From assembly GCA_021432655.1 (NCBI GenBank), contig MU271640.1:1-36359 (forward strand): DNA of 36,359 nucleotides. The letters are read 5' to 3'. The DNA comes from Atractiella rhizophila (lineage: Eukaryota). Position 1 is the stretch's first letter. Each line of letters starts with the position of its first letter. Below are positions 7,566-24,979 of the stretch, in pieces. A model generated the notes under the pieces. The model made no database searches. It had not been told where the DNA came from and saw only the letters and a list, made by a program, of their open reading frames with translations. The position numbers and the translations under genes are program-made.

Positions 7566-9420
7566 TCAAAAGGCATCATCGTAAACGACCCAGCGGACTC
7601 CGTCAAGGACACGCACGCCCCCTTCATCGACTTCCACATCAGTCACTTCTGCACCCGAACGGCTGCTAGCTGACGCTCCAAGCGCCAACAGCGCAGCTAC
7701 CTGATCAGAATTGAGAGATCTAGAGCTAGCCTCCTGAGCACGCTCTGCCGAAGTGAGTCTTCTCGGTACATCGGACCTCGACGAGTTTCGCTCAGATCCT
7801 CTTCGTGGTTCGGAAGTGGACGTCGTCGTACGACGGAGGAATGGAACTCGATCTGGAGAGATGTCCCGTCCCAATCGAGGCGGTACCATAGTAGTATTCG
7901 GTTCTGGATGACTTGTCATAGAGTGACCAAAGTCGGTGTCCAACGACACATCAACAACGTCTCTATCTCTCCATCCCTCTCCCACTCGCCTTGCGCGATC
8001 TCGACTGCGGCGAATCGATGTGAATCGATCGAAATCATTCGAAACAGGAGGCACGGGCTCGCTGTCTGCCATCGCTCTCACCTCTCCAGAAAGATTGTGC
8101 GAGGTCCTTCGTCGTCGAATAGAATTTGTGCGTTGGAGCGATCTGGGCACAGTCCAGCTCAGTGGATCAGAAGCTCGCGAGCCGTTCTGACTCGAACTAG
8201 TGAGCCATAATCGGGAGGGAGAAAAGCTTTCCGAGCTACCACTTGCTTGTGAGATCGTACTGAGTGCTGGAAGAGTCATTGGACGCGTTGACGGTGGAGC
8301 GCCAGCCATCGAAGACGGATTAGCGGAGCTGCTGGTGGAGCTCGATTCCAACCGCAGAATACCCGGAATGGATCCTTCTGATAATCGATCCTCATTGCCA
8401 TGCCTCGACTGGTATTGACGGTAAGATGGGAACGGATAAAACCGAGTTGAAGGTTGGTCCCATTCTGGTGCAGGGTCGGTATAACTGGAGCGGTCCTCGC
8501 CAGAAGCTGGAGGGGTTGGGAGTTCAGGTATATCGGAATGCTGCCTCCAGGATGGGGGATATGACAAACGGCGACGTTCGTGAATGCCTGAATGAGACTG
8601 TAGGTCGCCATCGAGATTGGGAAGGTCCAAAGAGCTCAAGTTGTGAGGAATGCTGCTTCGACTGGTCTGAGCTGTCGTCGTTTCTTCCCGTGACGTTTCA
8701 GGGACAACAGTGACCGCGTCATCGTCCTGGATATTTCTTGTCCTAGAAATGCGCTCCTCCCAAACATTCCACGGTGGGGACCTCCGAGCACTTTCAATGT
8801 TTTCCCGCACGACGCTACCATGCAAAGGACCCCAATTACGGTCAACAACCCGAGGCGGAAGGTAAGGGTCAAAGAAGTCATCAATCGGAGGCAATTCAAT
8901 TTCTTCAAAGCTTGAGCCATCCTCTGCCGTTCGATGGCGCCTAAGCGCATTTCTAGTGTGAAGGAATTGGTGCATCCGTAACTGAGGCGGGGGAACGATC
9001 GGAGGTTGCGTGGTTGAGCGAACAGAGGATGTTGGAGGGGTGTTTAGCACAGACTGTGTGAGAAAATGATCAAATAAGGAAAACCCAAAAGGGAGAGGGA
9101 AAACAAAAAACCAACAAGCGGCCAAAAAACCAATGGAACCGAAAAACCGCCAAGGTTAAACTGGTAAAGAAAGCCTGAAAACTCCTTTGCCCCCCCGCCC
9201 CCCCCCCCCCCCTGGCAACCCCCCTCCCAACCCCCAAGCAACTCCAACCAAGGGGGAAAACACTTTCTCAATCCCAATTCTCTTAAACATAGCAGAGAAC
9301 ATACATAAGGCATCTCATTTTGTCGCTCATCTCCTGATCCCATCCCGCTAAAGATCTTCGAGCGTCTGGTTCAGCACGCGTCTGGCGTACTGAGTAGACA
9401 ACTCACTTTACGCCCATTCT
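7566..9420 (-). CDS. Hypothetical protein with a long Ser/Arg/Pro-rich disordered last exon; 5' structure uncertain
   Basis: Open frame of about 490 codons from ~9040 to 7566 with coding-like composition, ending VLDGVRWVVYDDAF*. Splice donors near 9305 and 9405 suggest upstream exons, but 9060-9290 is garbled. Confidence 0.6.
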
Positions 9421-9702
9421 TCACGATTCCAAAGCTGGTATAGCTTCCCTACCCACTCTTTCGCCAATCTCCAATGCCACACCGTTTCTAAGCTCAAAAG
9501 CAATGGAAATCGCTGTGGCAGTCACTTTGCTCACAACGAGTTCGTGGAAAAGGTTGGTTTGCACGAGGGCCGGGGACGGACACGCAGGTTTCGGTTCCGC
9601 TCCGACCTTACACGTGACCTTCGCCAATGGTCTCAGACATTTTGATCAGGCAAGGGACCTCGTCGTCGAAGGCTGTCGGTCCATATACCCAGCATGGAGA
9701 TC

Positions 9703-10846
9703 ATGAATTCACTCTTTTTGTTGTGTACTCTCTTTGCAACTCTGTCCAAAGCAAACGATGGCTTTCCCGACAACTACAACATGCCTCTGTCTGGAAGCGC
9801 CTCTGTGACCCATTACGACTTACCCTTGGACTTTGTTGCGTGAGTTTCCATGCTTATCAGGTTATGACATTTGATGAGTCTGGTTGGTTGTGCTCAGTGC
9901 TTGTGGTTGTACAAATGGAACTTATCTATATCCAGTCGCTGCTTTGAGCAGGATGGCATACGGGAGCTGCAAGTACTCTATCTGCTTGATGGGACCACTC
10001 TGACGTTTTATACAGCTAGCGGATACGGACCCGGATGTGGCAGGTGCTTTCGAGTAACACTCAAGCAACCCGTTGTAGCCGATCCCCCATTCATGTGTGC
10101 TTTTGTCTTGTCGTCTATCCCTCAGGCTCTCTAACTTTCGCTGTGGTACAGACTTCCTGAAAGCTCTCGTCCTTCTGCAGTGTTCAAGATCGTTGATGGT
10201 ATCCTTGCATCTCTATCTTGGAACAACAAGCTAACAGACCTCCCCAGCTTGCCCTTCTCCGGATCTGTGCTTGGCGACCGAGAAGAAGCAAAACTCAGTA
10301 CGCTGTTTCGTCTTTCTTGTCCCTTATTTCGAGCGCTGACTGCTGATTAAAACTACTACCGCTCTTTAGGTAGGAGAGACGACGCATTTCGACATCTTTT
10401 CTCCATCGCCAGCGATTCCCATCACTTGGTTTCCTTCTGACGAAGCAACATACCATTACACTGATTTTGGGACATGTTCGTTAATCCCTCTTCTCCCCGA
10501 GGAGTCAGCGCTAATATTCCACTTGAAGGGTATGCCGACTATGAATCTGTTTCTTGTACCGCATGGGGTGGTTATACCGACCCGGCAGCTCAAGGAACGT
10601 CGTCGACATTCCTCGACCCAAGCATAGGATGTTGCCCAGCCGATCCACTCACAGTACGCTCTCTCTACCTTCACATCCGAATCAGCATTGCTGACGTTCG
10701 GACAGGACAACCAAATTTGTCCTGTCCAAGCAACTGCTGAAGGAACGAGCGGAACCTCAGCCAACTTCCAGCTTACAGCGACATATTGGCTGTCAGGAAT
10801 CTCAGCTTTCATGGCCTTCTGTTTCCTTGCGCAAGATTGGATTTAA
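9703..10846 (+). CDS. Secreted GH45 subfamily C / endoglucanase V-like (double-psi beta-barrel) protein, possibly GPI-anchored
   Basis: Signal peptide MNSLFLLCTLFATLSKA; exons give ASVTHYDLPLDFVAACGC..PVAALSRMAYGS..YGPGCGRCFRVTL, THFDIFSPS..WFPSDE..YTDFG, YESVSCTAWGGY, GCCPADP; hydrophobic C-terminal tail; TAA at 10844-10846. Confidence 0.8.
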
Positions 10847-11266
10847 ATTATCTTCATTGTAATATTCGATACATTTTCACCAGGAAACTGCGACCAGTTT
10901 ATCCTCCAAGCTCCTCTGATAGCCCTTGTTCGCATTGTACTTGAATGCCTCTTTGGGTACTGGTTGTTATCGCGCCTATCGACAAGACAGTTCAGACCTG
11001 ACCCTAGTGAGCAGTCTCATTCCTGGTTTGAAGTTCACAACATCTATTCTCAACCCATGCTAGCATACATGTTCAGGATGCCAATGCTTCCATTGTCATC
11101 AAGGTTTGCCTTGGTCACTTTCCTGTCCTATTGGGGAAGTTAGGAGAAGCGACGAGACTTCATTTTAAACACATATGTTACAACCATTTTGAAGACGAAA
11201 CTATCGAAGGAATGGAACACCCAAAAACGAAACAAAGCAATTTACACCGCAGCAAACTCGACCAAC

Positions 11267-12382
11267 TTACTGTTTCTTTTCTTCTTTCGCATCCTCCTTT
11301 TGAACCTCTGCTTTCCTTTCGTTCCACTCCTTTTCCACCTCTTCCGCCCACTTCATACTCTCTTCCTCCGAAAAGGCCGCCTTCGACCCCTTAATATGAC
11401 CATCTGGCTCTTTCATTGCAAAGGGATTGAAAGTCGTTTGCCTCTTCAGATTAGCAAGAGTGTGGTTGACAAACTAAACCGCGGCCGCGTTCAGAATATC
11501 CAAGTTGGGAAAGGTCAAAGTGAAATGCTCACGCGATGAGTTGCTTCATCTGCTCGAATGACATAAAGCACATCGACCATTTTGGCGTCTGGTCCTAGCC
11601 TCCAATAGTCTTTCGCAATGTTCGGAGCATCAAGGTTGGTCCATTCGGGCACTCTTCCAGCTTCCAGCTCCTGTCAACCATCGTAACCGTAAGTTTCAAC
11701 GCTGAACGCCAAGAATTGCCCACATACCTCAATGGCGCATGAGTACGTGAAAACGGCTTCTTCTTCAAGTTTTCCCTATCATTCACATCAGCTTCAAAAC
11801 GAAAGCAAAAAGCAAGTTGGAGTGACTCACCACAAAGCGATGGGCGATTCGTGGGGACAACATATAGGAGAGAAAGAACAAGTTGAAAAATACGCTTTAG
11901 TCGATCGATTCATGAGTTCCCCTATCTCTTAAAACAAAAGAGGAGCAGACCCTTGGGCTCCAAGCACAACGAGACGCTGTTTCAGGTCGTTAAGCTTCGT
12001 TCCGGCACGGAGGAGCAAAGATGCGTACAAAGAACCAACCGGGCTCTGAGATCTTCATGAATGTCATCAAGTGCATTCTTTCATTTTCAGCCTCCTCAAG
12101 CAATTCTACACTCCCGGTCAGTTCCGTTCCTCTGGCATTTTCAACAGGAAACTCACTATGGATCCATCCTCCATCCCGACGCATCAGTCTCAGCGAGCGC
12201 AAGTGTCTCAACATTGCTGCTACGAATCCTGGGACGCCAGCGATGGACTCCAAGAATAGGAAACGCATCATCCATTGATCTGTGACCACGTCAACTTCAT
12301 CCTACATGTTGCGTCAAGGCTGCTCACCAGGAGTCATGATGATGCCTCTCTTTCGTAATTCTTCCACTGACATGTTCCTGCC
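11267..12382 (-). CDS. AOX1: Alternative oxidase: catalytic core intact, normal N-terminus missing (possible pseudogene or chimera)
   Basis: [96 protein letters not shown] at 11269-11267. The frame is closed upstream by a TGA four codons before the ATG at 12373. Confidence 0.9.
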
Positions 12383-12438
12383 TCACAGACGACTGCCAGC
12401 GCGCTCGAAGGAACGAAGCGAATGAGAAAGCAACTAAC

Positions 12439-12667
12439 CAGAAGTGCCAAAGAAAGGTGTCACCTCCAAATCCTTCGCCTCTTCCGCCTTCTCCGGATTC
12501 CCCAACGCCTTCTCAGTCAGACTGGGATGGAGCTCCCCAGCTTGGATAATCAAAGACTGTATAGACTGACAAAGCAAGCTTTTCTCCTCGCTGGTCATAA
12601 CTTCGTTGTTTTGGGCTGCAAGATGAGGGGGATTGGAAAATGGGTTTTCAAAATATCGATTGGCCAT
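12439..12667 (-). pseudogene. Orphan first exon of a LanC-like (LanCL) protein
   Basis: MANRYFENPFSNPPHL..EEKSLLCQSIQSLI..DLEVTPFFGTSG followed by a GTTAGT donor at 12438. Resembles the eukaryotic LanCL N-terminus (R-x-F-x-N-P-[FY]) and first GxxG motif from memory; paralogous to the ORF start at 18676. No further LanCL exons follow. Confidence 0.6.
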
Positions 12668-13888
12668 GATGATTGCTTCGTATGAAAGTAGGACGAGTAA
12701 CAGTGCCGACTGGTGCTGAAAGATTTTGTGTGTGGTAGGTGCTCTGAGCAAGTAAGGATTGCTGCCTCCTTTTAACCAGCCAAAAACCTGCACATTCCTG
12801 AGGAATAGCTGCGGATGCCAGGTTGCGCAGCCTTGTGTGACTGCGGTACTGCGACCGACTCACTAACAAGCAAGAGAGTGTTGCAAAGTTCGACCAGACG
12901 AATGTGAACATTCAAATACTCAGAACTTCCCACAGTGTATGCATCAACTTCACGCGAGCACAGGCTACAGTATTGTAGCCTGAAGCAAGTGAAGGTTAAT
13001 AGAATTCGTTGCAGTCCGATCGAAAGGTCTCTTCACTTTGCTAACGATGGCGAGCATAGGAAGGCTTTATTGCGCTTCGGTGACTAATCTCTGCTTTCAT
13101 GCAGTATCGCCTAGTTGTTCAGCTTGACAGGTCGGAAGAGTCGTCCTAGAGAGAATAAATCAGTACATAGTGCAGAATCAATACTAACAGGAGAGAATGG
13201 ATCAGAAAGGTTTTGATCTCATCGTCCAACACCGTAAAGGTGAAGGCTCTCGACGAGCTGGGTTATTAGATTTCAGGCGCATGGCGCCTTTTTTCATCAC
13301 ATCACCGCAGTAAAGCTTTGGAGGAAACAAAGTGCTCACTTATTCATTCAGTTTGACTCTTTCCACACTGTGATAAAGTTACTTCTTCTCATGTTCTTTT
13401 CGTCGCAACCATCATTCCCTTCACTTTCCTCCATTGCCGACATGCACGAAGAGCATGATTTTATCACTTTCACAATTTGTGGCGGCATTTTCCGAAAAGG
13501 CAATCACCGACCCAGCGCATTCCTTTGAGAAGCAACATGAACATCATGAGCGTATGAAGGTCCATGAACTATTGCCTCTACAGGTGGTAATATACATAAC
13601 AAATGGGGATGGGCTGAGAGTGTGGCCCTTTGTTATCTTCAATATTAGTAGTCGCAAGCGAAAGGAAATCCTATGAATTTTCCGTCCCCCCTCCCATCCT
13701 TTGATTCGAGCACAGTCAACAAATCACTCCACATCACCACAGCCTGTGGCATTACTTAGAGAGCTAGTTGAGGGTCTAGATCGAAAGGAAGACGTACACC
13801 AGAAACTCCGAAGAAGAGACTGGGGTATCCATACTTCAAATCATAACAAAGCAAGAAACTCTCTCTCGACCTCTCAGTGTTATCGTTC

Positions 13889-16666
13889 CTAGCCCTCACT
13901 CGGAGCGTGGTCAGGTCTAGAAGTAGTTCTTTGCCTCCTCAAACCAGAGGGAGGCAAGGTAGGAAGAGTTTTCGTCCTCGCGGGAATGGAACCGTGTCCC
14001 GAATCTGAAGCCGCACTTCTATTCGGAGAACCAAAGGGCGAATCGAGACTTCCGGAACCTCCGATCCTTCTCTCATCGTCGCTGAATCCCATCGCTTGCC
14101 TGTATTGCCACTCGTCCACTCCAAGAACTGTGTTCCTATGATTGTTCTCAGGACGTGGAGGGCCAAGGCGGCGGGAGAAGTAGTTAGTGCCGCTGTTGGG
14201 GTTTGCATTTGGAGGATAGTTCTGGTGGGTTGAATTGACCGTATTGATGGTTCGAGTTGAGTTGGAAGGAGAGACGGAGGGGATGACGGAGTCGGAGTTG
14301 GGGCTGCGGAGGGGAGTTTTCGATAAGAGGATTGTTGATCGACCAGCGTTTCTTGATACGATTTTCCTTCTTCTCGATAACTGCTGGGGCTGTGAGACGA
14401 TTGAAGAAATGTCATAACGTTGACATGGACATTTCGAGGTTGATTGAGGAGGGATGACACGGGCACAAACATAGAAGAGCACCAATCAGTCGATTTCCCC
14501 ACGTCTGATAAGAAATGATCTCTGACAAGAGTCAACAACCCAAGACACCGCGAAGAAGAATCGAAAGAAGAAGGCCGACATGATGAGGTGAATGAAATTG
14601 GCAAAGTGAAATAAGAGAGGACGAGGGAAGAAAGGAGAAATAACGGTACAGGTAGCTACGTAGCTAGAATATATGAACGGATCCACTCCCTCCAACGAGA
14701 CTGGGGTAGCATAAATTAAACAGGATGTTTTGGTATTCGTGTCGTTCGAGGGAGGAAGGGAAAAGTCGAATGCAACGGGACGAGGAAGAAGAAAAATGAA
14801 AGGGCTCGTCAAGGTTCTAATATATCCCAACAAGACGCTGAGGTTTTCTCTCTGGAACCCGCGCTTTGAGCCAATCCAGCAGCCATAAAAGCAAGAACGA
14901 ACGAGACCGTTGATCGCAAGTGAACTCACCCTCGGGATTGAGGTGAGGGACTCCTTTCTGTTGATTGCACCTTCGAAGCCATCTCCGCCATCTGGATGGC
15001 GATACTTCGTCAGCAATGGTGACAGGATAATTCAGAGGGTAAGGACTAACTGGCTGATCCTCCAGCGGGACTAAAGAGTTAGAAGTTGCCGTCGACGTCG
15101 TCTGGAGCTCGTTTGTGTATTTGCTCGAAGACTGGGCGTCCAGATTGAACCACGACTTGCGTTGCATCTTTGTGAAGTCGTAAAGATGGAAGCTGCAATT
15201 CAACAATTCATTAATGTCAGGAAACGAAAAAGACGCGGCACGGACTTTTGCTCCATTGATCGATAGTCAGCTGACAACTGATTGATGTCGAGGTTCGGGT
15301 TGCGCTTCTTAGCCTTGAGGGGATTATCTTCGAGCAAGAGTTCCTCAAGTTCGTGTGTTGCGTCAAAGTTAGCTTTCTTGGACTGTTGAATGGAAAAATC
15401 CGACCAAGTCCACCCGCTTAGCTACTCCGTTAAACGGCTATAGAAGAGGAGATACATACATCAGGTTCGAAAGGGGGAACTATCTCCTTTCGTTCTAATG
15501 CGACCCAGTCGACTCCCTTGAACCATGGATGGCGTTTGAGGTTTGCCAGTCCGCCAGTTTGCCTCGTCCCCAGTCGCTTGTTGATGTCCCGCTCCAGGAA
15601 CTGGGCGCAAACCCACACGCTCGGTCAACCGTCTCAACACATCGAGATGTAAAATGAGAAACGTACACCTCGAATACATGATGCAGATTCCGGTGTGATC
15701 ATCTCTCCGCCCGCCCCATCCCTTCCCACATCCTGTACATCTGCCATCTTCACTGACTCTTTAAGGATCGAGTGCGTCAGACTGCTGTTCGTCTTGCCCT
15801 TGAATGGTCGTTTGCCGTACATGAGCTCGTATGCGAGGACACCAAGAGACCACCAATCAATGGTAGAAAAGTATCCACGCTTTGCGAGAATCTCGGGAGC
15901 TAAGTTCGCAAACCGCCTCGGTTGTCAGAATTTTGATGCGTCAAGGGGAGGGTGAAGTGAAGGGAGGACTGACCCATGTATGCCATACTTCCTGCAATAG
16001 ATGTAAGCGGTTTTCGTTCGTTAAAATGAACAGCGATGTTGAAATCGGTCAAGTGGGCATGACCCCGTTCGTCAAGAAGAATGTTGTCCGGTTTGATATC
16101 CCTACACATTTCCCGTCAATTCTGGGTCTACAGCAGTAAAGGCGGTGCAGGGTGGGAGTGAACGAACCGGTGGACGATTCCCCGCTCGTGCAGGTAGTCC
16201 AAAGCCACGGCCAACTCCATGACATAGAACCTCACACGCTCCTGACTGAAGAGGCCCATCCTATCCAGATGAAACCTCAAATCTCCTCCCAACATTAAAT
16301 CCAAAACCATGAATAAATTCTCATCATCTTGAAAGGCATAACGCAAGTTGCAGACGAAAGGACAATCGATCTCTTCTAACAGTCGGCGTTCTTGAATGAT
16401 ATTTTGAACTGCGTGTTGCTTCGCTATTCGAGCTTTATTGATGTACTTGAGAGCGTAGAGCTGTTTTGTCTGTTTGTGCTGAACCACTCGAACCTAGCGA
16501 TCCATCCGGTACCCGTCACTCCACCGATCCCTTGGCTCCAAAAGCAAAAGAAGTGACATACCTTTCCGAAAGCACCTTTTCCTACTGACCGTAAGAGATA
16601 AAAGTGCCAAAGGTCGACGGGAGCGTCGAAATCGATTTCCTCCGGTCTACAACAGAGAGCACCCAT
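13889..16666 (-). CDS. AGC Ser/Thr protein kinase, YANK/STK32 family
   Basis: MGALCCRP lipidation-type N-terminus, [62 protein letters not shown] (DFN typical of YANK), [19 protein letters not shown]. The last exon 14389-13889 is inferred across a 540-nt intron and is less certain. Confidence 0.92.
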
Positions 16667-16864
16667 TCTTGATGAAGATTATCGGTATGCCTGGAGTGTG
16701 GGTATTGGGGTTGTTGGTGTCTCAAGGAAAAATAAAAAATAACGAAGAAGTGTAGATTACTGAAACTGGAAGGTAATAATGTAATAAGGAGGGAGGACTA
16801 CTTAGACGTTGGCGACGCTGCGTCGTGGTGGAAGAGCGAAGAAGTTCGGTTCGGAGGAGCGTTG

Positions 16865-16889: not shown

Positions 16890-17053
16890 TGCTACTTTAG
16901 TCATAACTACCATAGAATTCGACCGACCGACAACATTCTCGTTGACAATCCTAGCTGTTGTACGTATTCGGGCAGAGGCGCTATCTATAGTTTCGTAACT
17001 CTAAGTAAAGGTAGTGTTGGGGTCGAGGACTAGTACGTTTCTACTGCCGAGTG

Positions 17054-19342
17054 CCGTTACAAAGGTAAGTATAGTCTGCACTGTCGACGTTTCCGGAATG
17101 AAGGGTCTTCTAGATAGTAGGGTGTTTTATTTAGTCTTTTGTTCTCTCTACAATACCATCTTTCCATGGTTTCTCTCGTTGCTGAGGGAGGCAGCGGAGG
17201 TCCTTGACCCACCACAGGTGAGGTCCACACCAACTCTGTAGTCGCATCCTCGCGAACTACCATAGTTTCATAGGTCCACATCGGTAAAACTACGACTAAA
17301 ACACGACTAGACCCACCCTCTAAACCTCCTCCGGAAGCAAAATACGAAAATACGTTCAGTTAGCCCTACGCGAACTAGCTCTAACAAACGAGCATAAACT
17401 TAACACCACGTACTGATTTCTTCATGATGTTTTCATGGGTTGGTGGTGAAATCTGGAGAAAGACCGGTAAAGTGCTACTCGCACGCATAAAGAGGGAAAA
17501 ACATAGTGAATTAGAGTGCCTAGCCGACCTACAAGTCCATTAGTGGTTGGAAAAGTTCGCGTTAAGGCAGAAGCAGAGGTGGCAGCGGCACTGTCGGAAG
17601 CCGAAGAGGTAGCAAAAGCTCTTCCGGTGTTGGCGAAAGACCCTGTTGGTGTTGGCCCCACATTCGGAGAAGGAGACACATGAAAACACTCCTGTCTTCC
17701 TCGACTACTTCCCTACCCTTGTCTTTGTCACCTTCCTATAGTCTGTGTTCATACACCTCCGACTCCTCATCTCGTCTCGTCTCTTCGTTACCTTAAAAAA
17801 CTCGTAGCGACTAAACAAATTTGCACTCACCTACTACCAATGAACTGCACCACACACGAGGAAAGAGAGCAGAAGGAGGCCCACCTTTGTCTTCCACAAC
17901 AGCATTGGACGGAGCCCAGTAACAGAAGATACTCGCAAGATGGAGTGTGAGCATGCGGATCAAACGCGCTTCGTAGACGAAACCAGCCTTCTCGTCTACA
18001 AATACACTCGAGACTTGACAAAAAGAATCGAGAAAGCCGAAAAGACGGTAAGTCTGGCAATTCAAACGGGAGCTGTAATAACGCTACCGTACTTGCCTTT
18101 CTGACTCTCACTCTTCGACCGATCGTAAGTCATGAGAAATTTCGCTTCGGCACATCGGCACGGTTTGCCTCTATTGGTTTTTAGCCAAGCTCCAATGTAG
18201 TTGAGCAAACCTCAATTTTTGATACCTTTTTTCGACAGTTAGTATACATGTCGTGATGCCTAACTCTTTATACTAGTCGAGTCGGCCACGAAAGGGAGGG
18301 TTTCGCGACGTTCGAAGCCCATACCTTGCAACCGCACTCCCCGGTCGCAAGAGTCGAGTCGCAAGCCAAGGGGCCTACTTGGACTTGATTCGTGAGAACC
18401 CTCACCGAAGTTACCGTCGGCGAAGCCTGGGCGCGCCGCACTGATAACGAACTGTAAGCCACACTCGCAGCCACGCTCGCTTTTAAAACGTTCCTCTCCC
18501 ACTCCACTTTCCTCGGCAACCAGGCTCCGAAGTTATGCACGAGTCCAAGAACACCTGGGTGAGACAGTGTGGAAGTACAGTACAACACACTGAGTTGAGT
18601 TCCCTATATTTTATCACCCCGTAATACCGGAGAAGATCTGGAGAGTAAACAAAGACTCAATTCTTGCCTTTTTTTTACCCGCTAGCGATGAAGCTCTTAG
18701 GAAAGAACAGGGAAGGATTCCTACCTTGATATCGCCTACTTCTTCTCTTCTGCCAGGATTCCGTCCGTTAATACCTATTGTATGAGTACAGAAAATCAGA
18801 GCGCGTCAAGCCGCCGCACCAGCCGAGTCGGGAACTCTCGAATCGCTGGTCGAGAACGAGAAGGGGGAGAAGAAGCGAACTGCGACCGAAGGACTGATGT
18901 GGCTGCTTCGCGGACTGAGGTTCACACACGCTGCCATGGCTCGATCGCTGCAGAACAAGGGCGAAGAGCTCACGGAGAGCTTCACCAAGGCATATGAAGG
19001 AAGCTTGAAACAGTTCCACAACTTTGTCGTCAAGGGTGTCTTCACCGTATGTGTTCTCCCTTCTCTGCATTTCGTCTCCTCTTTTCGCTCGCGATATTGA
19101 TGCGATCGATGATGGAGTAGTTGGCCATGAAAGCCTGCCCATACCGCAAAGACTTCTACGCAAAGCTGGGCTCAGACCAGGCGAAGGTCGAAGAACAGCT
19201 CGGTGCCTGGCTCGACGCTTTGGGCAAGATCATCGACCACATGGAGAAATTCTAGTTCGTCCTTCCCACTCTCAGTCCTCTTCCCAAACAAATAAATGAC
19301 CCTGGTTCCAGCCAAGACGGAGGACACAACAAGGGTTTCTAG
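17054..19342 (+). CDS. Glycolipid transfer protein / HET-C2 homolog; exons 1-2 lie in the mirrored block
   Basis: Backward reading 17286->17169 and 17112->17054 gives MATPGYFDTIKRSYADVSTTPGVDTTQFLEATEGVVALF|DLLGSKAFAAVTSDMNGNIA. Normal plus strand from 18792 continues KIRARQAAAPAESGTLESLVENEKGEKKRTATEGLMWLLRGLRFT..AYEGSLKQFHNFVVKGVFT|LAMKACPYRKDFYAKLG..QDGGHNKGF*. Confidence 0.93.
17476..17771. CDS. QCR9: Cytochrome bc1 complex subunit 9; readable only as the plain complement left-to-right (minus strand once the block is corrected)
   Basis: Complement exons 17476-17481, 17538-17660 and 17724-17771 with GT..AG introns give MS|VITNLFKRNSVFVSTVAVTAFGFSIVFEKATTAFWDNHNRG|KQWKDIRHKYVEAEE* (58 aa). 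Confidence 0.93.
18676..18780. CDS. 5' fragment of a LanC-like protein gene in the mirrored block
   Basis: Complement left-to-right gives MGDRYFENPFLSLPKDGTIADEEEKTVLRQAIMDN, with TATAAAA at 18606-18612 in the same reading. It aligns by eye with the 12667 exon. Confidence 0.6.
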
Positions 19343-19782
19343 ATTCTCAGCCAGAAGAAACCAATCGCATTGTCATAGTCCAAATGATCAAGGTGTAGAT
19401 TGCATTTCCTCCTGATCTTCATGATCAGATTTCGTTCAGGGTTCAATGTGGATAGTGAGTGGGAGGTAAGGGTTGCAATTCATCATCAGTGAAGCAGTGT
19501 AACGATTTTCGATTCGATTGAGGATTGAGGATTGCATATTCACGATTAAAGAGCAATAAAGAGGTCGAACTACCTAGTTATTTTGAATGTTAACGATAAT
19601 AAGAGAAGGAATCTCGAGAGGCGAGGACGCGCCAAGAATCCAAAGCGAATGTCGCTCAAAGCCCAAAGGACAAATCCGAACCCAAAATCCCCATCGTCAA
19701 TCAGACCGAACAGACAACTCCACCTGCATCCTTCTTCTACCAACTTTCATCTGATGTCACAACCTTCTCCCACCATCTTCAT

Positions 19783-21081
19783 CTAATAGTCTTGCACCTC
19801 CGGTGCCACCCCTCTACCCTGAACCGGCCTTGGATAAACCGGTGAGCTCATGAGGTTATCTCTCATCCTCGGATCGTAGTCGTCCCTCGCCAAATCCGTC
19901 CTCACGAATCCATTGCCTCCGCCGACGGCACCATTGCTCAGTGGCGACGGGGAGAAAGCAGAGAAAGACTGGGACAGGGAGGTGGAATGTCCCCCTCCAT
20001 TTCCATAGCTAGAACCGTGACTGCTGGTCGAGAAGGGGGTCGTGGAAGGCATGGGAGGAGGGGAGGGGAGCATCCTCCTCGAACCCGTCGTAGAAGACGC
20101 TCGGGAGTGGGAATGGGAAAGTGACTGAGATTGGGAATGGGAGTGAGAGTGCTGATACTGTGACAGGAGGCTCGGCATCCTAGAAGGAGGTGAGGGGGCG
20201 TCGTCATGAGCGAGTGGATAAGGTTGAGAGGAGGAGGTGTGAGAGAAGGAGGAGATGGCCGGGGACAGAGCTCGCTCGTACACTTGCGCGGTTGAAGGGC
20301 CGTTTGGGTTCGGCAGTGCGCGCATGGGCGAGGGTTGGATTGGGGTCGAGACTTTGGAGGGAGCGTTTGGTTCGGGAGGAAGACGACGGATGGAGACGGA
20401 GGGAGAGATGGCTGATGCCGGGGCGGAGGCGGGGACAGGTAGGGCGGTCTGGAGCTTCGGGAGGGAAGTAGGGGAGGGAACGGTTGTGACATTGCCGTTG
20501 CTGTTCGTGGTGGGAAGGACGGGAGTGGGTTTGGTGGAGATGGGAAGGGGAACGGTCGCGCCTACAGCAGGCGAGGCATCGGGAGAAGTGAAAGCGGAAT
20601 GGTCGGTGTGGACCTCTTCCTCTCTCACCAACGCCTGCAGCGAATTCGGATTCGGATTCTCATTCTCGAACGAGAATCCATCGACGGCGTCTTGATCAAG
20701 CGCTTTCGCCTTGCCTTTGTCCTTCCTCGGAACGAACACCACCTCGCTCTCCTCACTAATGCTCTCCTCGGCTCCACTCTTTCCGCTCTTGCTCCTCCCT
20801 AGATCTGAACGCGGCATCGAGCCGTTCCTCCCCAAGCTAGTCTGACCGGCGTGCCCCTGGGCGCCGTGAGAGTCGCGGGAAGGAAGGCTTGAGTTCCTCC
20901 CCAAGATGGATCGTGGATTCGAATCGTTCCTTCCCAGACCAGCGCCGGGAACGAAACCAAAAGAATCCACGGATCTAGCCAAGGACCCTGTCCTGCTGAG
21001 GATCTGAGACTTATCAAATCCTCTCCCTCCGCTGTGTTCCCTTCCCATGTTCAAGTTGTTCTTCACACAGCTCCTCGACAT
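19783..21081 (-). CDS. Pro/Ser-rich low-complexity hypothetical protein; possibly the 3' part of a larger or truncated gene
   Basis: 432-codon ORF, GC-rich relative to its flanks, with LGRxxS repeats, Pro-rich tracts and an HS repeat. No recognisable domain. Confidence 0.65.
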   Translation of the reverse strand: MSRSCVKNNLNMGREHSGGRGFDKSQILSRTGSLARSVDSFGFVPGAGLGRNDSNPRSILGRNSSLPSRDSHGAQGHAGQTSLGRNGSMPRSDLGRSKSGKSGAEESISEESEVVFVPRKDKGKAKALDQDAVDGFSFENENPNPNSLQALVREEEVHTDHSAFTSPDASPAVGATVPLPISTKPTPVLPTTNSNGNVTTVPSPTSLPKLQTALPVPASAPASAISPSVSIRRLPPEPNAPSKVSTPIQPSPMRALPNPNGPSTAQVYERALSPAISSFSHTSSSQPYPLAHDDAPSPPSRMPSLLSQYQHSHSHSQSQSLSHSHSRASSTTGSRRMLPSPPPMPSTTPFSTSSHGSSYGNGGGHSTSLSQSFSAFSPSPLSNGAVGGGNGFVRTDLARDDYDPRMRDNLMSSPVYPRPVQGRGVAPEVQDY

Positions 21082-22077: not shown

Positions 22078-24979
22078 TCAGATTTCCAGTTCCGTTTTGA
22101 TGTCGCCATTACTCGGATTGGGAGGATGAGGGAAAGTGGCAGGGAGGAAAGCAGCAATTTCATCTTCTATTCTTGAAGGTCCAGAATGTCCGTTCGTCGA
22201 GGGAAGGAATACAGCAATGTCTGTCGAATTCTGATTCTGTTGGGCTGGCTGAGAGCTGGTTGATTGGGCATGGAGATCGGTATGATATCCGTTTTGAGGA
22301 GCTGTAGGCTTGATGTCAACATCCATACCATTCCGCCAAACTGTCTTCTCAACAGTTACCATAACCGTCCTCTTCTCCAGCACCGTATTCCCTTCTTCGT
22401 CTAGCCCGAACCTCTTCGTAACCGTGTTATTTGTGATGTTCGTTGTGACGGTTGCTTCTCTTGCACCAAGATCTTGCCTTCCTGGATCTACCCTCATCTC
22501 TACCCTCTCGGTATGTTGTACCGGTAAAGTCTCCCTCGATATTATCTCCCCTTCATGTGACGCTTTCTTTCCCTTTAGGGCCTTCTTCTTCGCTCTCCCT
22601 CCTTCCGCCGAATCTTCTATCACACTCAGGCGTCTCTTTTTCGACAGCGCTTCAGACACCACCGACCCTTGACGCTTCTGAGCGGAAACTGTAGAGGCGG
22701 AGCGACGCCGTTTATCAACTTCGAGATCATCTCCATCATCATCATCTCCCAACGCGTCCACGACAAGATCCTTGAAATGTTGGACGAAATCCGCAGGGCT
22801 CATCGTCTCCTCCTCCAGCTTATCGTGAGGCACAGACTCCCTCGCAATCCTTCTCTCGTTCGCACTCACGTCCGTCGCTTTCTTGCCATCCAAACGTCGG
22901 ACCTGTTCGAAGAGGAAACGAGCAAGGTGCTTCAAACCTTTGAGCACTCGAACGTTGATGTCGGCTGGGAGAGGGGCGAGAGGATCGGTCTCTTTGCATT
23001 TGCGGAGGCGTGCGGCGTACGACAGCGCTACATACCAACAAAGACGTTCGTATTGAGGGAAACGGAATTTCTTGGGCACCTTCGTGACCACCTCAATATC
23101 GTAGACTCGCATCTGCGTTCCGATGTTGAGACTAGCATAATTATCAGTGGCTGAGTTGTAGAGACAGCTTAGAAGTTACCTGTGAAGGAAGTTACCACCA
23201 ATGACGAGAGAATCGGTGGGCGTATACTATGAAGATCATGAGCGATTGGTTCCAAATTAATTGACTGAAGACAGACGACTGCATGAATCCATCCTGTAGG
23301 AATGATAGCTGTTGATCCTTGAGGCAGATCTAATCTGTAGACTTTGTCGACCTCACCACCTAGCCAGCTATTCTCTTGTTGTTCGGTGCTGGAGCTCCAC
23401 TTCTCGTACTTCTTCAAATTTTCTGGAGTCGGTCGGATGAAATAAAACACTTTTGACCCTCGAAGAATATGGTAGAACACCTGAATAAAGGTCAACGCGT
23501 ATCATGCAAGTAGATGAGCAGAATCGTACTGAGGATCCGGCGAGCTTTCCGTCCAGTTTCTGCGCTTCGGCGATTTTCGAGTCCGGTTCTTCCTACGACG
23601 AGTCTGACCCTTCCTACAAACCCAACTCACACTTTCCAGGCAGAGAAAATCCAAAACCCCCCATACCAACCAGCAGATTACCAAGTTCCCATACCCCTAC
23701 TGGGGGGAGGTTTAATTTCTCGAACGTCGCCGAATCTTTCTACACTTTCAGTGTGTAGACTACATAGGTCAATGAAAATACGATAGATGTAGCAAGTAAA
23801 AACAATAGCCCATCGGACGTGCAAAAAGAAATTGGACCAACCGTAAGTACCACTTTAAGTTTTACATAGGATTAGAAAAAACTAAAACACCGTCGACGTG
23901 TTGCACCATAGTAACCAGCACACAGTTACTCTTAGGATTTCTGAGGGAACTATGGCAGCTATTCCACGCTTTCAGAGAAGACTTCAGTATGACCTATAAT
24001 TGGTTGTTACCCTGTCACCATGACGAGCGGGACGAACCTGAGGTAGGGTCTGGAGTTTTAATGGAAGGCTCGTGGTGGTGCTTTCAGTCGTGCTTTACGC
24101 CCTTACGGAGTCTAGTTGATAAGGTTGAACTTAGTTCCTTAACTCAGGCTGGGTCCAGCGACCCAGTTCGACAACCTCTTGAGTTGCTTGCCTGCGTCTT
24201 TGCAACAATGGTGTCTAGTCGATGGAGTCTCAACCTTCACCCTCCTACCTCTTCCCGACCTCCTAACCTAAACCCCTGCTCCTAAGTCCCCTTTGTGGTT
24301 GCCACTATGTTTTTTCCACCTGTTCTTCCTTCCTTCGCTCTGGCTTTCGCTCCTACCTTTTCTACTGAAACTACTCCTACTTTCACCCTACTCGGTGGGT
24401 TAGCAATAGTCTGTTCCTTACTTCCCTCAGCCCTACCTCAACGGCGTCTTGAACTGTCACGCTCTCCAACGACTCTAACAACCATACGAAAATAGACCGT
24501 GTAAATAAACAGTTACTGACCAAGTGGCGTCCGGGACTGTGAGGCCATCTCCATTAATAGTAACGAACTACGATCTTTAATAAATTAACGAAAATCCAGT
24601 AACTACAACGTTCGGTCTGACCTGACTTTCTGACCTGCCAACCTGCGACCCGTGTTATGATGTTGCTAAGCGCTGGAGCTCTGTTTTAGGCTTTACATTA
24701 GTCAGATCTCCAATCACTCAGTTTCGATCCTCTCTTTTAACTTTACGGCCTTGGGCAGTCCAAGCAAGCAGGAACTTACGTCATCCTGTGGTATGACTTG
24801 GGATCAATCCTTTAACCTGACCCAGTGCTTGAAGACCGGACTTCTGGCTGCACCGGGTCCTGTCATGGGCTTCCAAGTTTTTATAACGGAATACTCGCAG
24901 TCGGTGACGACCTGTCATTCAATAGAAGGCGAGACGACTCAGGTAAGACTGTGAAGGCGTCCTAACCGTGTAACTGAAG
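22078..24979 (-). CDS. JHD1: PHD + JmjC histone demethylase (KDM2/Jhd1); 5' half in the mirrored block, start codon in the gap
   Basis: Complement of 23542-24979 gives WVECE|SCTTWYHWSCV..K|WYCSPC (PHD), LTVREVAEIVG|PDTPVE|VIDVASQ, IRNVISLEVS, LDWVTNFWP..YPKVQKYCLMSVSHCWT|DWHIDF. The normal minus strand from 23541 continues AGSS|VFYHILRGSKVFYFIRPT..IPTGWIHAV|YTPTDSLVIGGNFLH..VPKKFRFP. Confidence 0.95.
23542..24979. other. Mirror-reversed segment (reversed, not complemented); probable assembly artefact
   Basis: The plain complement encodes a run of spliced JHD1 exons. Its last codon (TTC, 24977-24979) joins exactly to GCC starting at 23541 on the minus strand. Confidence 0.97.

Follow-up and report, generated by a model that had tools for sequence, protein, structure and literature searches.

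The stretch of DNA analyzed here (the window, 36,359 nucleotides) corresponds to positions 1-36,359 of the forward strand of contig MU271640.1 of Atractiella rhizophila (assembly GCA_021432655.1, G000, which comprises 51.5 Mb in 1,998 contigs). On its minus strand, the 3' part of an alternative oxidase (AOX) gene is found directly next to the first exon of a LanC-like gene and the region upstream of that exon (Table 1). The window was compared with the rest of the assembly and with four of the 24 public runs listed (X1, X2, X3, and X7), all in the form of contigs and representing at most three samples. In agreement with the initial annotation, the di-iron motifs and splice sites of AOX were intact (eight exons, seven GT-AG introns of 48-59 nt, 242 aa from ATG 12373), the AOX frame was found to begin after TGA 12385-12383 with an ATG at 12373, and the AOX N-terminus was absent upstream of it. 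All seven AOX introns of the window are also present as splice joints in X3. The exon found in place of the N-terminus (12667-12439, 229 nt) ends in phase 1 at a GTTAGT donor at 12438, as had been described, and exhibits no similarity to full AOX (best E 8.3). The previously noticed TTAAAAG element was located at 12775-12769, and support for any role was not found; an X3 contig extends beyond it, to 13144 and further. The statement that exon and AOX are joined out of frame holds for the acceptor CAG 12378 only, since four of the nine AG sites between 12430 and 12340 are in frame. Among these, CAG 12367 would give a 72-nt intron and a predicted fusion of 316 aa, while GAG 12382 would give a 57-nt intron and 321 aa. 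The neighborhood also includes a plus-strand multi-exon gene at about 9700-10850 that converges on AOX and encodes a secreted, possibly expansin-like protein, as well as a protein kinase gene on the minus strand at about 14450-16680. Positions 8028-10082 are single-copy in the assembly, although each flank has a second allele, and probably represent collapsed haplotypes.

Table 1. Features, junctions and faulty blocks identified in the window.
Feature	Position	Strand	Remarks
AOX 3' part, part of exon 4 to exon 11	11267..12383	-	Allele of the intact C380 gene; 97% to C380:5293-7589; PF01786 E 6e-31
First 56 nt of the 205-nt intron 1, LanC-like gene B	12383..12438	-	Matches C288:2387-2442; the C288 intron is 2387-2591
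Exon 1, LanC-like gene B (76 codons + 1 base)	12439..12667	-	One residue differs from C288, two from C509; joined to exon 2 in X3
Upstream/intergenic region of the tandem LanC-like genes	12668..13644	-	98%/96% to C288/C509; covered by X3 contigs, one with intron 13145-13338
3' end of the upstream paralogue, LanC-like gene A	13645..13821	-	Left border approximate, by eye; 77% to gene B last exon; intron 13743-13796 in X3
Junction J1: AOX exon 4 meets LanC-like intron 1	12383		One base common to both sides
Junction J2: AOX-side path resumes	13818..13821		Four bases common to both sides
Back-to-front block (reversed, not complemented), LanC-side path	16890..18785		Reversed window matches C509:27451-25548 at 95%; adjoins 25-N gap
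Second foreign block, LanC-side path	18786..21006		97% to C509:25547-23353; joined to the AOX-side path by a single A (21007) fitting neither side
Second back-to-front block	23542..24978		Reversed window matches C380:15196-16623 at 98.5%; adjoins 167-N gap

AOX was found on two contigs of the assembly, and the tandem LanC-like genes on two others. The intact AOX gene, located on contig C380, consists of 11 exons encoding 395 aa and reads identical to the NCBI protein P0003, which is labelled 'alternative oxidase [Atractiella rhizophila]'; a cluster look-up of P0003 returned a single member and no further allele. P0003 aligns to the trypanosome AOX (PDB 3vv9, E 1.5e-53), and the di-iron motifs, which we take to carry the four Glu and two His ligands, are present in the window translation. 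The window AOX differs from C380 by 7 synonymous and 2 non-synonymous changes in 243 codons, with both non-synonymous ones in the last six, and is an undecayed allele. With respect to the family (PF01786), the window exons represent an allele of P0003 residues 155-395, catalytic motifs included, whereas about the first 151 codons are missing, including the profile positions 1-44 seen on C380. The missing N-terminal extension and first profile segment are present at C380:7687-7815.

The second parent, LanC-like gene B, is intact on contig C288 (6 exons, 483 aa) and starts with the exon seen in the window. The proposal that this is a LanC-like exon 1 was borne out, as X3 splices 12438 to exon 2 and later exons of the parent match PF05147 (C288:3419-3637, E 8.9e-6, over the cut-off). 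The 483-aa model contains FCHG and ICHG, presumably the Cys and Cys-His motifs of LanC-like proteins. A profile search with the exon, a check that the initial annotation had proposed, returned no Pfam family at E <= 1 for the 77-aa exon. The parent gene fits the family profile in its later exons and sits in a tandem pair, but it is divergent, in that exons 1 and 2 each match no Pfam family alone and PDB searches with them gave none or chance matches only. In a search of longer proteins for the exon none of 52 candidates scored, and it had no power, since the native LanC-like protein was equally missed. Divergent LanC-like genes with 63% identity at the DNA level form tandem pairs at C288:1-4019 and C509:27892-32111. 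The intron-bearing X3 contig spans the space between the two genes, which suggests a long 5' UTR or read-through.

Alignment to the parents revealed a replacement bounded by two junctions, the second of which (J2) was absent from the initial annotation. Positions 10083-12383 match C380:5293-7589 and positions 13818-16864 match C380:9152-12196, while the 1,439 bp between them (12383-13821) match C288:2442-1010 at 98% and C509 at 96%. In this way a LanC-like block of 1,439 bp, which contains exon 1 of gene B with its upstream region as well as the 3' end of gene A, takes the place of 1,562 bp of C380 comprising the AOX promoter, the first three exons and part of exon 4. The initial annotation had favored a deletion or rearrangement that fused the genes through a hybrid intron, with misassembly as a fallback. 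With a two-junction replacement, both parents intact elsewhere and only native run contigs, the former found no support and the fallback became the favored reading. A simple deletion, in which neighboring genes were fused to leave either an old pseudogene or a shortened AOX starting at ATG 12373, agrees with the letters of J1 in isolation; it is nevertheless refuted, because the AOX-side path returns at 13818 and the AOX and LanC-like genes are not adjacent on C380, C288, or C509. The absence of decay in the AOX part also speaks against an old pseudogene, and this reading has next to no probability. A search for the missing AOX and LanC-like parts located both intact parents elsewhere in the assembly. 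It revealed neither a reciprocal junction or product nor a third copy of the AOX 5' end or of the LanC-like remainder.

The alignment of the block contains 61 variable columns: the window alone differs in 16, C288 alone in 5 and C509 alone in 35, and in 5 all three differ. The block is therefore a third, true allele of the LanC-like locus and not a sequencing error. Allele depths near 1:2 were observed in X1 and X2 at positions 11253-11411 and 12957-13015, and the block exists in three distinct versions, which suggests that the fungus has about three haplotypes (triploid or three nuclear types), 1-4% apart. X1 and X2 are DNA runs from one sample, which need not equal the DNA assembled. The alleles of the window are found in at least two of the samples: record 9 of X2 exhibits zero differences to it (depth 102 of 310), and window-only letters occur at 13579 in X2 and at 12838, 12988, and 13184 in X3. 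These private letters indicate that the haplotype of the window is present in those samples. In X2 the summed depth is 310 over AOX vs. 303-316 over the block, and, contig depth being a rough measure of copy number, the equal sums indicate that the block is no extra copy.

In all four runs the contigs exit the window at both junctions into native sequence. According to the Logan preprint, contigs of assembled runs collapse variation. Such contigs demonstrate the presence of a sequence, not its absence. At J2, records 6 and 7 of X1 and records 14 and 15 of X2 extend natively for 473, 717, 473, and 1,279 letters beyond the junction, respectively, X3 is native on both paths and X7 is native on the AOX side. 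When the graph is simulated with the joins of the window included, the LanC-side path is interrupted precisely at 13821. Since the native contigs are unbroken there, these graphs do not contain J2 at haplotype depth, a conclusion that depends on the contig assembler removing only much weaker links. These observations bear on the view that J1 and J2 are both real, that is, that a 1.44-kb templated insertion or swap arose by microhomology-mediated repair in one nucleus or sub-culture. The one and four bases shared at the joins and the nature of the block, whose 16 private differences among 61 variable columns mark a true allele rather than error, are in its favor. However, the native contigs unbroken over J2 in four of four runs, some of them with the alleles of the window, and the lack of extra depth over the block render it very improbable.

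Apart from the two junctions, the window carries further faults (Table 1). Its two back-to-front blocks were confirmed by alignment, and we know of no biological process that reverses kilobases of DNA without complementing them. A survey of 15 scaffolds or parts (522 kb), namely the window, four related and ten similar-sized ones picked by number, yielded 16 N gaps, none under 25 and four of exactly 25 N. The program PBJelly writes 25 N for overfilled gaps. Of the eight mirror-like runs in the survey, six are no more than 230 bases away from a gap and the remaining two are weak. Other back-to-front blocks beside N gaps, detected by word-direction score only, were seen at about C509:4250-5500, C460:14250-15000, C463:20000-21250, and C465:2250-5250. 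In addition, six of the 11 self-duplicates in the survey are head-to-tail with practically no spacer, all six with an A at the join that is foreign to both sides in four cases; a seventh has a spacer of 29 A. A foreign A or A-run at joins of allele copies was observed at window position 21007, C509:13496, C463:17037, C466:11882, C467:30967, and C458:14715-14743. It appears that short gaps were overwritten with A throughout the assembly, and tandem duplicates marked in this way are suspect.

Neither J1 nor J2 shows a visible N or a clear A mark. An A is absent from the plus strand at J1, so that the hidden-gap mark of this assembly is missing, and the chance of the four shared bases of J2 is about 0.3% under an A mark and 1.6% if blunt ends were joined at random. 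These two joins were thus probably made differently from the other joins of the scaffold. One and four shared bases are the typical residue of real end-joining. Polishing of an A to T at J1 was also considered and is disfavored, given that the A was retained at the C463 join, where C is predicted from either side.

At J1, contigs of X1, X2, and X3 depart at 12377 and carry on into the native 5' end of AOX, while X7 keeps the letters of the window up to 12383 and then continues into the native AOX N-terminus. In each DNA run two contigs enter at 12383, with a median of 34 loose letters. For such loose ends two native haplotypes predict 86 and 86 letters and three predict 34 and 39, a model picked after the number was seen; 34 letters is also the exact distance to a site known to vary. 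No loose end is seen in X1 or X2 for the arm that carries the AOX letters of the window itself (12362-12383). This arm may have been lost in filtering (there is a hole at this place in X2), or there may be a short contig bridging J1 outside the listed pieces. In X2 such a contig at haplotype depth would need 16,800 and 13,666 is available, while the depth sums of X1 in the bin 12289-12409, rough and made by hand, fit both models. A record bridging J1 or J2 is not found among the records listed, with 35 further pieces outside the listing. In addition, none of 11 joints belongs to a transcript fusing the exon to AOX. Pattern scans of metagenome contigs gave no match for the window junction and none for the native AOX form, a control that thus failed, so that these scans carry no weight.

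A different possibility is that J1 alone is real, as a translocation or inversion breakpoint in one haplotype, with read-pair links driving the interleaving and with J2 and the later switches as artefacts. The A mark missing at J1 and the window-allele arm devoid of a loose end in X1 and X2 are consistent with it. So is the register of the two paths over two scaffolds, as the coordinate sums of C380 and C509 remain constant (37.7-38.2 kb) over five switch points; this would be explained by a real breakpoint at J1 and equally by an early false join. Furthermore, C380 is joined to the LanC-side neighbor region across a 25-N gap. On the other hand, the loose ends of 34 letters agree with three native haplotypes within the LanC-like intron, X2 has no depth to spare for a bridging contig, and the assembly contains no reciprocal product. 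The fusion joint is missing in X3 and X7, both of which are native, a weak point as a rare transcript could be dropped, while J2 shows that gapless false joins occur in the same stretch. All in all, a breakpoint at J1 alone seems distinctly unlikely. The gap mentioned (C380:5268-5292) connects the LanC-like neighbor region with an intron belonging to the gene downstream of AOX, in the same register as the interleaving of the window. It may reflect a misjoin or point to a real heterozygous rearrangement close by. A hidden breakpoint near window position 10083 was also considered as the cause of the interleaving, and no junction sequence was visible there at contig ends.

Considering the origin of the block, the intact parents, the native contigs at both junctions and the other faults of the scaffold, we believe that the fusion of AOX with the LanC-like gene is very likely an assembly chimera, and we infer that J1 is missing from the DNA. 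The assembly would have broken into allele-specific pieces, and the unrelated paths of the AOX region and the LanC-like region would then have been interleaved in one scaffold. As a result, a third LanC-like 5' allele (1,439 bp) would have been set in place of the AOX 5' end of this haplotype (1,562 bp). In the cell, a full-length AOX including the N-terminal extension would be produced, and splicing would connect the LanC-like exon to its own exon 2. The program step behind two joins devoid of a gap mark is not explained by a chimera.

Similar artefacts have been described. Heterotype duplication yields false chimeric gene gains, such as three ALDH2 exons inside ACAD10 in an old zebra finch assembly (PMC9516828). 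In that study, such gains, like the present case, place an exon allele of one gene inside another gene in a heterozygous assembly with the parents intact elsewhere, but their inserts are usually bounded by gaps (PMC9516828). Here, J1 and J2 have no visible N. The block was likewise found to be a haplotype allele with no extra depth (three versions, equal summed depth), and of its borders, which have neither N nor a clear A mark, J2 is unsupported in four of four runs, and a contig bridging J1 may exist. Overfilled gaps and hidden scaffolding errors are known from short-read assemblies patched with long reads, and these reports describe kilobase extensions beside short gaps at mis-scaffolded joins, as observed here (PMC3504050; PMC9635638). 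Our literature searches returned no paper on back-to-front gap fills and none joining alternative oxidase, LanCL and fusion.

The locus may serve as a warning, as this assembly hides small gaps as A, reverses some gap extensions and interleaves unrelated regions. Due to such faults, any chimeric gene or tandem duplication called from this assembly requires support by reads. The presence of a foreign A where two pieces meet provides a quick flag, while the absence of an A proves nothing. For the biology of A. rhizophila the fusion most likely has no significance. A real rearrangement in one of about three haplotypes is unlikely; if it were true, it would be a young one, with a LanC-like promoter and exon 1 placed ahead of AOX exons 4-11 and sheltered by intact alleles elsewhere. 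Splicing to CAG 12367 would then yield an in-frame protein of 316 aa with a complete di-iron core and no mitochondrial N-terminus, a newborn in-frame chimera that would act as a mis-targeted oxidase under a foreign promoter. Should J1 be real, it would offer a natural test of AOX function without the N-terminus.
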